The notes: generated by a model not told the origin, from the sequence alone. A stretch of DNA of 39,682 nt from an uncultured Woeseiaceae bacterium (GCA_945787435.1 CALZHX010000222.1:1-39682); one strand, 5' to 3'; shown: positions 18,438 to 20,129, numbered from the stretch's first letter. Translations and numbers: made by a program.

Positions 18438-18941
18438 ATGCATAGCAGCAAAGCCGCCATATTGCGGCGACAGAGGTTTGATCAGAACGTGGGCGTCCAT
18501 CACCAGGATATGTACCGCTACGCCGCGTGGCTGAGCCGGGACAAGGCAATTGCTGAGGATGTCGTGCAGGAGGCCCTGTTACGGGCCTGGAAGTCGCTCG
18601 ACGCGCTTCGCGATGAGACCTCGGCGAAACAATGGTTGCTAACGATCGTGCGCCGCGAGAATGCCAGGTATTTCGAGCGCAAGCGACTCGAAACGGTCGA
18701 CATCGACAACCTGACGGCCTCACAGGCGGCGTTGCTGGCAGTTGAAGACGACAAAGAGCTCGACGACATGCGACAGGCTATTTACGAGCTCGAAGATGAT
18801 TACCGCGAACCGCTTGTACTGCAGGTCCTGATGGGCTACAGCACGAACGAGATCGCAGAGCAGATGGAACTTAAGCAGGGCGCAGTACTGACACGGCTGC
18901 ACCGGGCGCGAGCCAAACTCGCAGTGAAGATGGAACGATGA
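18438..18941 (+). CDS. ECF-type RNA polymerase sigma factor (sigma-70 family, group 4)
   Basis: 167 aa. Region 2 is [28 protein letters not shown]. Region 4 (HTH) is [40 protein letters not shown]. Its stop overlaps the next start (ATGA). Confidence 0.88.
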
Positions 18942-19648
18942 CGAATTGCGACCAGTACAGAGAAGCGATTGCAGCGGACCCGTCATTTGACGGCGCCGCC
19001 GGGCATCTGAGCGAATGCTCGGCCTGCCAGGCGTATCGCAAAGAAATGCTGGCCCTCAACCAGACGATTAGCCGTGCGCTTGCACTTGAAGTACCGCAGC
19101 TCGATGTTCCTGAGTTGCCCGCGATCGAGACAGATAACATTGTGGCATTGCCGACTCGAAAGTGGGCGTCGCCGACCTGGATGGCCATAGCTGCCACGGT
19201 GGTTCTCGCTGCATTCGTCGGGTTTCGCATGGTCGGCAGTGGCGTTGAGTACGCGACGCTCGGCGATGAGTTGCTGGCGCATATCGACCACGAACCTGCA
19301 TCCCTTGCGGTTACCAGCGTTGCCGTAAGCGATGCGCGCCTGACATCCGTCGTGCCGGCCGACATCGCCCGTCTCGACCACAGCTCTGGCCTGATTACTT
19401 ACGCGCAGAGCTGCGTCATCAGAGGGCATTCTGTGCCGCACCTGGTCATCCAGGGTGAGCATGGCCCGGTCACCATTTTGCTGATGCCTGAGGAAATGGT
19501 GTCGGCCCCGCAGACCGTCACGGGCGAGAGCGTCAACGGCGTCATATTGCCAGTGGGCAATGGTAGCATCGCTATTTTTGGTGGGCGCGAAGAGTCACTC
19601 GATCGAATTGAGAAAAAGGTTCTGGAATCTGTGACGTGGAGCACCTAG
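18938..19648 (+). CDS. Transmembrane anti-sigma factor, zinc-finger (ZAS-like) N-terminus, DUF3379-like
   Basis: It is translationally coupled to the ECF sigma gene. It has an H-x3-C-x2-C motif (HLSECSAC) and a single TM segment (WMAIAATVVLAAFVGFRMV), followed by a periplasmic domain of about 135 aa. The DUF3379 assignment is from memory of this architecture. Confidence 0.7.
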   Translation: MTNCDQYREAIAADPSFDGAAGHLSECSACQAYRKEMLALNQTISRALALEVPQLDVPELPAIETDNIVALPTRKWASPTWMAIAATVVLAAFVGFRMVGSGVEYATLGDELLAHIDHEPASLAVTSVAVSDARLTSVVPADIARLDHSSGLITYAQSCVIRGHSVPHLVIQGEHGPVTILLMPEEMVSAPQTVTGESVNGVILPVGNGSIAIFGGREESLDRIEKKVLESVTWST

Positions 19649-19710
19649 TGCTCTCGTTACCGATGCATGTGCCCAGCCTGGGCAATAACCCTGAGTAGGA
19701 GAGAGAGAAA

Positions 19711-20073
19711 ATGTCTGAGAAGAAAATTGCGAAACCCATAGCCTTAGCTGTGGGCACGGCGTTGGCCGGATCGTTCGCACTGTCGAGCAGCATTGCCAGC
19801 GCCGATACCGTTGAAAGCCCGTTCGCACTGTCGACACTGACGGCTGGCTACATGCTGGGCGCCGGCGAAGGTGGCTGTGGCGGCGATAAGGAAGGTAAGG
19901 AAGGTAAGGAAGAAACCGAAGGCGCTTGCGGCGAAGGCAGTTGCGGTGGCGATAAGGAAGGCGAAGCCGAAGATAAGGAAGGTGAAGGTTCCTGCGGCGC
20001 TGACAAGGATGCAGAAGCGTCCTGCGGTGGTGACAAGGATGCAGAAGCTTCCTGTGGTGGTGACAAAGGGTAA
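19711..20073 (+). CDS. Secreted acidic Cys-Gly-repeat low-complexity peptide; putative metallophore / RiPP precursor (HvfA- or bufferin-EGKCG-like)
   Basis: The RBS aggaga lies 8 nt before the ATG. The Sec signal peptide ends ..SIASA|D. The head is ESPFALSTLTAGYML. Six (G/A/S)-C-G motifs then sit within a G/E/D/K tract. It has its own strong terminator. Confidence 0.75.
   Translation: MSEKKIAKPIALAVGTALAGSFALSSSIASADTVESPFALSTLTAGYMLGAGEGGCGGDKEGKEGKEETEGACGEGSCGGDKEGEAEDKEGEGSCGADKDAEASCGGDKDAEASCGGDKG
19888..19913 (+). repeat. 9-bp in-frame tandem repeat (aaggaaggt x2.9; KEG-KEG-KEE)
   Basis: Read directly: aaggaaggt aaggaaggt aaggaaga, inside the peptide gene. Confidence 0.85.
20001..20068 (+). 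repeat. 30-bp in-frame tandem repeat (x2.3) encoding DKDAEASCGG units
   Basis: 20001-20030 and 20031-20060 differ at 2 positions. A third partial copy (tgacaaag) follows. Confidence 0.9.
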
Positions 20074-20102
20074 TTAGTCTCTTTCTACACACTTTGCAGA
20101 TT

Positions 20103-20129
20103 AAGCCCGCGCCTTGCGCGGGCTTTTTT
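20103..20129 (+). terminator. Rho-independent terminator of the peptide gene
   Basis: gcccgcgc (20105-20112) pairs with gcgcgggc (20116-20123) and is followed by T6 (20124-20129). Confidence 0.88.

Follow-up and report, generated by a model that had tools for sequence, protein, structure and literature searches.

A conserved Woeseiaceae module of ECF sigma factor, DUF3379 anti-sigma factor and probable captophorin-type precursor peptide

The 39,682-nucleotide stretch of DNA analysed here (GCA_945787435.1, CALZHX010000222.1:1-39682; the window) comes from an uncultured Woeseiaceae bacterium and holds three adjacent plus-strand genes, encoding a sigma factor of the extracytoplasmic function (ECF) type (18438-18941, 167 amino acids), a membrane anti-sigma factor with a zinc-binding anti-sigma (ZAS) domain and a DUF3379 domain (18938-19648, 236 amino acids), and a secreted peptide with Cys repeats (19711-20073, 120 amino acids). 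We suspect that these genes form an autoregulated envelope-stress operon with a captophorin-type precursor as its third cistron, and put the probability of this explanation as a whole at roughly 60%. The sigma stop codon and the anti-sigma start codon share an ATGA overlap, a terminator scan found no terminator-like site in the 62-nt spacer between the anti-sigma and peptide genes, and an intrinsic terminator at 20103-20131 (plus strand) closes the three-gene unit. With its 10-bp stem of 8 GC pairs (20103-20125), 3-nt loop and T run, it is the sole strong terminator-like site on the plus strand of the module. An initial annotation, made from the sequence by itself, had called the genes, the overlap, the gap, the terminator, divergent hemB on the left and tag on the right, all of which we recovered at the same positions.

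The peptide is a diverged member of the EGKCG precursor family (captophorins, oxazolins or Buf_EGKCG precursors), which includes HvfA of Haemophilus influenzae, FonA of Fontimonas thermophila, NgoA and MmrA, and with which it shares a Sec signal peptide and repeated Glu-Gly-x-Cys-Gly units. The predicted signal peptide (19711-19803, plus strand; residues 1-31, MSEKKIAKPIALAVGTALAGSFALSSSIASA) was read from the sequence. It has a Lys-rich n-region, a hydrophobic core and a cleavage motif between ASA and D that follows the von Heijne -3/-1 rule, and is kept in 76 Woeseiaceae peptides. Bufferin and oxazolin precursors are characterised by such Sec signal peptides (PMC12452194). The leader region that follows (19804-19860, DTVESPFALSTLTAGYMLG) has the motif (N/S)PF-x-x-(S/T)-x-L-x-x-GYM, with the consensus sPF.ms.LsaGYMLg among the 76 Woeseiaceae peptides. 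In the window peptide the leader segment SPFALSTLTAGYM aligns with SVFQASDLGAGYM of FonA and is likewise similar to NPFGLHALDAGYM, NPFGATDLASGYQ and other such leaders of precursors from MNIO-PME1 clusters (PMC12668002 Dataset S2), so that an NPF..L..GYM-type leader is common to FonA, many Dataset S2 precursors and the window peptide. Compared as a whole with FonA (sequence from PMC12668002 Table S6), the peptide gave a BLASTP match with E = 3e-8, leader included.

The acidic core (19861-20073, residues 51-120 and the stop codon) contains six Cys, every one of them in an E-[GA]-x-C-G unit (EGGCG, EGACG, EGSCG twice and EASCG twice), and its DNA includes a tandem repeat at 19984-20066 with a period of 30 nt, 2.8 copies and 88% matches. 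Across 76 orthologues Glu at position -3 and Gly at +1 relative to Cys are invariant (100% each), while Gly occupies -2 in 95% and Ser occupies -1 in 81% (Lys in 9%). This sets the peptide apart from captophorin precursors, which have Lys where it has Ser before most Cys, and whose cores are Lys-rich rather than strongly acidic (24 Asp plus Glu among the 89 mature residues here). Similar units are on record, given that Dataset S2 of PMC12668002 lists MNIO-PME1-cluster precursors with EGSCGGDK units (for instance WP_238400823.1), classed under the EGSCG motif, and NgoA appears to carry EGSCG units too, going by the ngoA gene sequence given in machine-read supplementary information. Substitutions made with FonBC indicate that the modified Cys is essential, that only Gly or Ala is accepted after it, that processing is blocked when Arg stands in for the Glu with which the unit opens, and that Ala, Arg or Thr is tolerated in place of Lys (PMC12668002), a pattern that broadly coincides with the invariance pattern of the Woeseiaceae units. 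For MmrA, a model has the leader engaging the partner protein's RRE domain (PMC12538549). Six sigma-linked orthologues pass the NCBIfam model NF050137 ("HvfA family ... RiPP metallophore", RiPP standing for a peptide made on ribosomes and modified after translation) with 19.6-39.8 bits, one orthologue is named "HvfA family" by NCBI, and 1582 database homologues were found. The leader, the Cys units, the FonA match and the orthologues that pass NF050137 together point to a peptide of a known family and not to a new kind of molecule, which bears out the resemblance to HvfA- and bufferin-type precursors seen in the initial annotation.

Conservation of the arrangement was examined by scanning one genome per GTDB species with a narrowed DUF3379 alignment as query, which returned Woeseiaceae only. 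The 80 loci obtained all come from genomes of uncultured bacteria, whose labels read Woeseiaceae, Woeseia sp. or no more than Gammaproteobacteria or Proteobacteria, and their anti-sigma factors are 46-72% identical to the window copy. In all 80 species-representative genomes the sigma, DUF3379 and peptide genes are adjacent and lie between hemB and tag. Whether the three genes co-occur elsewhere had been left to such a survey by the initial annotation, for which a lack of co-conservation would have spoken against a module; they are together in every species, far beyond chance. The peptide gene is intact in 70 loci, cut by the contig end within the repeat in 7 (L019, L040, L044, L050, L051, L066 and L067), interrupted by runs of N in 2 (L022 and L031) and frameshifted in 1. 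In the last of these (L042, around 8723-9300) signal and leader stand in one frame and the Cys repeats in another, owing to a frameshift or a sequencing error. The repeat breaks short-read assemblies, so that metagenome-assembled genomes are likely to under-call the peptide gene. A strong Shine-Dalgarno sequence (GTAGGAGA) precedes the peptide gene in 65 aligned Woeseiaceae spacers; in the window it is AGGAGA at 19697-19702 (plus strand), 8 nt before the start codon. On longer contigs, including ones of 3.2 Mb and 2.7 Mb, the order is aroE, hemB, the divergent sigma-DUF3379-peptide unit, tag, a 145-amino-acid hydrophobic protein and an S8 subtilase, with tag coming right next to the peptide gene or, as in L001, behind a few inserted genes.

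The anti-sigma factor matches Pfam DUF3379 (PF11859) over residues 7-230 with 96.2 bits against a threshold of 33.2 (E = 2.3e-27), and its N-terminus is predicted to be a cytoplasmic, zinc-binding ZAS domain, given that C4 and the motif H23-x3-C27-x2-C30 are at least 90% conserved among 28 diverse homologues, down to 28% identity. Both features agree with the ZAS/DUF3379 type assigned initially. The periplasmic DUF3379 domain comes after a single transmembrane helix at about residues 80-100; among the same homologues it has an invariant C159 and H168 and a near-invariant H115. Against the PDB, the sequence matched RsiW and DdvA weakly, at the N-terminus only. In an AlphaFold model of the protein (predicted local distance difference test score 88), the best Foldseek match of the periplasmic domain is MucB/RseB (6jau_A, LolA-like), with a probability of 0.99 but E = 0.044 over 103 columns at 14% identity, so that a LolA/RseB-like sensor fold is no more than suggested. 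The anti-sigma factor has no match to NrsF (PF06532). DUF3379 comprises more than 1200 clusters at 50% identity, and the closest homologues of the window protein with a named source are from Woeseiaceae.

The sigma factor matches Pfam Sigma70_r2 (2e-13) and Sigma70_r4_2 (3.7e-12), and reaches 195.2 bits against NCBIfam PRK12517 (cutoff 197). With regions 2 and 4 only, 167 amino acids and a co-encoded anti-sigma factor, it is classed by sequence as an ECF (group 4) sigma-70 factor, and it is 43-79% identical to the sigma factor beside every DUF3379 gene examined. Immediately upstream lies a candidate autoregulated ECF-type promoter (18406-18437, plus strand), made up of TAATAA at 18406-18411, a 15-nt spacer and GGTCA at 18427-18431, with the sigma ATG at 18438, 7 nt past GGTC. 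The pattern AATA[ATC]-N15-GGTC-N7-9-ATG precedes the sigma gene in 79 of 79 Woeseiaceae loci and 33 of 60 distant loci, always with a spacing of 15 nt, and it occurs once in the window where 0.05 matches would be expected. A stricter form of the motif, run over all fetched loci (about 1.8 Mb), hit only sites upstream of sigma genes, apart from one minus-strand match in L072. No second ECF promoter was found ahead of the peptide gene in the window or the Woeseiaceae loci, and a sigma-70 promoter scan of 18000-20600 gave nothing. Since an ECF-type promoter is conserved only before the sigma gene, the peptide gene is probably co-transcribed by read-through; and since no Shine-Dalgarno sequence stands ahead of the sigma gene, its mRNA may be leaderless, driven by the sigma factor itself.

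Beyond Woeseiaceae, a distant set of 80 metagenome loci, with anti-sigma factors 34-41% identical to a distant representative, retains the synteny of aroE and hemB divergent from sigma-DUF3379. At least 12 of the 80 have a canonical EGKCGEGKCG peptide with an NPF..L..AYM leader directly 3' of DUF3379, followed by tag where the contig reaches. Elsewhere, a BufA1-MNIO-HvfC cluster is divergent from sigma-DUF3379 in L168; the C-terminal remnant of an MNIO gene, HvfC_N, sigma and DUF3379 lie on one strand in L169; and an EGKCG peptide follows sigma-DUF3379 in L173 and L174. Linkage of DUF3379 pairs to components of MNIO-RiPP systems is therefore recurrent, in three architectures, and not obligatory. 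The MNIO end in L169 (VPTLIEWDVDLPPLDVLL, 3256-3414) is 49% identical to FonB over 53 amino acids and the short HvfC_N protein has 158 amino acids (3374-3850). Both stand upstream of the sigma-DUF3379 pair and might represent a maturase pair in decay, or else an error of assembly.

In the explanation that we favour, the membrane anti-sigma factor would at rest hold the ECF sigma factor through its cytoplasmic ZAS domain. A periplasmic signal would be sensed by the DUF3379 domain, with its putative LolA/RseB-like fold and invariant Cys159/His168, and would free the sigma factor. This signal would most plausibly be copper, another thiophilic metal or an oxidant, as suggested by the captophorins, by the control of hvf and ngo through RpoE2 and SigE, and by the invariant periplasmic Cys/His pair. 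The sigma factor would then transcribe its own operon from the promoter just upstream of its leaderless gene, and read-through would yield the Sec-exported EGKCG-family precursor encoded by the third cistron. The six E-G-x-C-G units could bind Cu(I) in the periplasm, thereby removing the inducer and closing a negative feedback loop. Given that the NPF..L..GYM leader and the Glu -3/Gly +1 context, which are the features that MNIO-PME1 maturases read, are both kept, modification in trans seems most likely, and within this scheme we favour an MNIO/DUF2063 pair, with its genes at another place in the genome, that would turn the Cys into 5-thiooxazoles. Published statistics point the same way, since 2583 complete genomes have a Buf_EGKCG precursor and only 67 of these are without an MNIO gene (PMC12452194 Table 3), which leaves an unmodified thiolate/carboxylate buffer as the minor variant of the scheme.

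Several observations weigh against this explanation. The first is the absence of maturases, which the initial annotation had already noticed near the module: Pfam found no DUF692/MNIO (PF05114), DUF2063/PME1 (PF09836) or DoxX among the 37 open reading frames of the 39.7-kb window, and no maturase turned up when FonB, FonC and HvfB were compared by tblastn with the window and 85 loci (1.23 Mb in all, ±8 kb, 80 Woeseiaceae species) or with the 80 distant metagenome loci. Neither did a search of a 5.8-billion-protein set with FonB help, the best 120 of 8000 matches being close FonB relatives only; those with names among the 120 are mostly from Nevskiales (Fontimonas, Solimonas, Sinimarinibacterium and Panacagrimonas) and are uninformative on Woeseiaceae. 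Furthermore, the pair exists without the peptide. In about 30 of the 80 distant loci tag directly follows or overlaps DUF3379 and there is no peptide gene, the remaining loci being too short to tell or having neither peptide nor tag; and no related neighbour of sigma-DUF3379 was found in L167, L170, L171/L172, Catenovulum, Pseudoalteromonas or Aeromonas. The pair thus does not serve the peptide alone, it may respond to a signal that has nothing to do with metals, and the peptide is apparently dispensable for signalling by pairs in the same synteny. With respect to the sensor, the structural match is weak (E = 0.044, with no PDB match at E <= 0.001) and suggests a fold that binds lipids or peptides, unlike a classical metal site, and the promoter is proposed from motif conservation. 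As for the peptide, it has no Pfam match and scores 15.2 bits against NF050137, below the cutoff of 19.5, although the MNIO-linked EGSCG precursor WP_238400823.1 also falls short with 16.5 bits, both because they have few CGExxCG doublets. A marginal HvfB match in L083 lies inside aroE and was discarded as spurious.

The same absence of maturases makes room for the alternative that the peptide is never modified, that Woeseiaceae have no MNIO or PME1 at all, and that the sigma factor controls a secreted thiolate/carboxylate buffer for metals or oxidants, with E-G-x-C-G units and leader kept for metal-binding geometry or folding and not for enzyme recognition. We regard this as rather unlikely, although there is a good deal in its favour. 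Not one of the 80 species has a maturase within ±8 kb, the peptide gene sits in a housekeeping neighbourhood, and the core is unusually acidic with Ser and not Lys before Cys. Unmodified HvfA binds several Cu(I) ions (PMC11252979), and stand-alone precursor genes are on record for which the authors left open modification in trans or none and suggested modification-free activities in the 67 genomes without MNIO (PMC12452194). Those genomes are, however, just 2.6% of the complete genomes that bear a precursor, EGSCG units serve natural clusters as substrates that are modified, and the invariant Glu -3 and Gly +1 and the retained FonA/MNIO-type leader are features by which the enzyme and its partner recognize their substrate. 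A still bolder and less probable version would have a former RiPP precursor turned into an unmodified, sigma-controlled buffer for metals or oxidants in the periplasm of a family without any MNIO or PME1, with DUF3379 acting as a hitherto unrecognised periplasmic Cys/His sensor for the copper or oxidant left over by its own peptide. If true, this would be a self-contained three-gene circuit for sensing and buffering, and it would provide the first function for the DUF3379 family.

It has also been considered that the peptide is a periplasmic ligand or co-sensor of DUF3379, for example one that binds solely in its metal-loaded or oxidised form, in which case the anti-sigma factor would sense the peptide and not the metal. 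The strict adjacency in 80 of 80 species, the resemblance of the sensor domain to RseB/MucB, which bind a periplasmic segment of their partner, and the strong conservation of the leader motif where no partner protein is encoded nearby would all fit. We find this improbable, given that the same pair with the same C159/H168 and synteny does without a peptide in the roughly 30 distant loci, that the pair is also peptide-less in Alteromonadales and Aeromonas, and that the leader motif is equally found in precursors of MNIO-PME1 clusters. That the peptide frame is a low-complexity artefact or decaying pseudogene, as its repeats, the spurious frames in other registers and on the opposite strand, the lack of a Pfam match and the frameshifted L042 orthologue might suggest, is already refuted by the conservation data, with the gene intact or merely truncated by assembly in 79 of 80 species, its Shine-Dalgarno sequence, signal peptide, leader and Cys context conserved, and homologues numbering in the database as given above.

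Control of such systems by ECF sigma factors has precedents. RpoE2/HrsE in H. influenzae and SigE/anti-SigE in Neisseria, in each case an ECF sigma factor with a ZAS anti-sigma factor, control the hvf and ngo DoxX-MNIO clusters (PMC7907618), which places an EGKCG-type system under an ECF/ZAS pair in the response to oxidative and hypochlorite stress (PMC7907618), as we propose here. The anti-sigma factors differ, those of hvf and ngo being short, soluble and cytoplasmic (67 amino acids in Haemophilus), with their sensing done inside the cell, whereas that of the window has 236 amino acids, spans the membrane and carries a periplasmic DUF3379 domain. The target differs as well; it is a complete biosynthetic cluster in those organisms (at a separate locus in Haemophilus), and in the window only a precursor, within the operon of its regulator. 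Unlike captophorin clusters, moreover, the window has no MNIO (HvfB/FonB), DUF2063 partner or DoxX next to the precursor, which is instead the third cistron of a sigma/anti-sigma operon. The usual arrangement described in the initial annotation, with the precursor beside DUF692 and DUF2063 genes, often with DoxX and sometimes with a sigma/anti-sigma pair, matches PMC12452194 and PMC12668002 Table S1.

A second sigma/anti-sigma pair that stands beside a copper-stress RiPP system is SigF/NrsF of the Buf1 (DUF2282) bufferin clusters (PMC12452194), and NrsF is given for 14% of MNIO-PME1 clusters in PMC12668002 Table S1. The membrane protein NrsF (PF06532) is multi-pass and bears no relation to DUF3379. 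In the accessible portions of both MNIO surveys (PMC12452194 and PMC12668002), which report NrsF and ECF sigma factors, DUF3379 is absent from the co-occurring families, and neither Woeseia nor DUF3379 was found in those parts of the paper supplements that were available. In the literature searched, DUF3379 is named in one paper only, an unrelated one; the distant locus L168 does pair DUF3379 with BufA1-MNIO-HvfC. The stand-alone bufferin-like precursor genes (PMC12452194 Fig. 3, Table 3) are likewise unlinked to MNIO, but they are single-gene units or have non-conserved flanks, whereas the regulator pair of the window module is conserved in 80 of 80 species. In RseA/RseB and MucA/MucB a membrane anti-sigma factor works with a LolA-like periplasmic sensing fold, of the kind that the model tentatively suggests here. 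In the Woeseiaceae protein this fold would appear to be fused to the anti-sigma factor, and the likeness, which is confined to structure, is weak (E = 0.044, 12-14% identity).

The precursor family, stand-alone precursors and ECF/ZAS control of such systems are thus already known. What is new, as far as the literature searched shows, is the DUF3379 membrane anti-sigma factor as regulator, the precursor as third cistron of a regulator operon, the invariance of the arrangement across an entire abundant sediment family, and the acidic variant with Ser in place of Lys. The suggestion of a distinct, undescribed system in which the anti-sigma factor senses the peptide is accordingly weakened, because the precursor family is known, ECF control is known from Haemophilus and Neisseria, and pairs of the same synteny occur without the peptide; its claim to novelty survives for the DUF3379 regulator and for the placement of the precursor.

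From the perspective of function, these loci offer a first context for DUF3379, a widespread and uncharacterised anti-sigma family that is recurrently tied to components of copper-binding RiPP systems. They also provide a natural test case for whether stand-alone bufferin or captophorin precursors are modified in trans or work unmodified, at a core-genome locus that all the Woeseiaceae species examined have kept. Woeseiaceae rank with the most abundant bacteria in marine sediments and dominate many coastal and deep-sea sediments with steep gradients of sulfide, oxygen and metals. A conserved, inducible periplasmic buffer of thiols or thiooxazoles could contribute to their ecological success, and the predicted compact, autoregulated circuit for sensing and buffering could be rebuilt in E. 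coli.

The surroundings of the module are those of a housekeeping region. Beside hemB, aroE, topA, hemF, dprA, def, fmt and rsmB, the Pfam matches in the window (37 open reading frames scanned, unassigned ones rescanned at E <= 10) are SIS, BCCT, an M3 peptidase and an NtrY/X-like pair. To the left of the sigma gene, hemB is divergent on the minus strand. Its mechanical open reading frame spans 17309-18460 (383 amino acids), whereas homologues have 335 amino acids and a conserved start at 18316 (MSTSSPGQF...), which a conserved CTCAT also supports; with 18316 and not 18460 as the true start, hemB does not overlap the sigma gene and the gap is 121 nt.

A block in this gap (ATTTTCCCTGTATTTAGGTAGGGTTTCCACG, 18349-18379) is near-invariant across 79 Woeseiaceae loci and holds a direct repeat of TTTCC at a distance of about 20 nt, which reads GGAAA on the hemB strand. 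The block is distinct from the candidate promoter of the sigma gene and may be the hemB promoter or the binding site of a regulator; at the equivalent position the distant loci have a sigma-70-like element, TTGCGC-N17-TATGGT. The anti-sigma-peptide spacer contains a GC-rich palindrome or short hairpin (GCCCAGCCTGGGC, 19671-19683, plus strand) that is not followed by a T run. As GCCC-N5/6-GGGC(A)A it is kept in the 65 aligned Woeseiaceae spacers, and distant loci with a peptide gene lack it in their spacers of 42-54 nt. The terminator scan of the window did not call it. One guess is that it serves as an element of transcript processing or stability.

On the right, after the terminator, tag encodes 3-methyladenine glycosylase I (20144-20737, plus strand). 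In Woeseiaceae the peptide gene and terminator stand between DUF3379 and tag. In many distant relatives (L092, L093, L100, L101, L104, L107, L118, L121, L128, L129 and others) the tag start lies within a few bases of the DUF3379 stop or overlaps it, so that a DNA-repair gene is apparently co-transcribed with the sigma/anti-sigma pair. In L176 (Catenovulum adriaticum) sigma-DUF3379 comes after a MoxR/DUF58/VWA/BatD (Bat-like) operon with no captophorin genes nearby, and in L175 (Pseudoalteromonas piscicida), an unannotated record in which the open reading frames upstream of the pair are unidentified, there are no captophorin genes nearby either; the DUF3379 family thus has at least one other conserved context. 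Just after tag in the window, 20793-21233 (plus strand) encodes a hydrophobic, apparently multi-pass membrane protein of 146 amino acids, kept in the Woeseiaceae synteny (145-148 amino acids in L001, L003 and L005). The idea that it is a hidden DoxX was rejected, as neither Pfam nor NCBIfam supports it even at E <= 10. It is followed on the minus strand (21230-24469) by a secreted S8 subtilase of 1079 amino acids with I9 inhibitor, PA and fn3_6 domains, which likewise belongs to the conserved Woeseiaceae synteny near the module.

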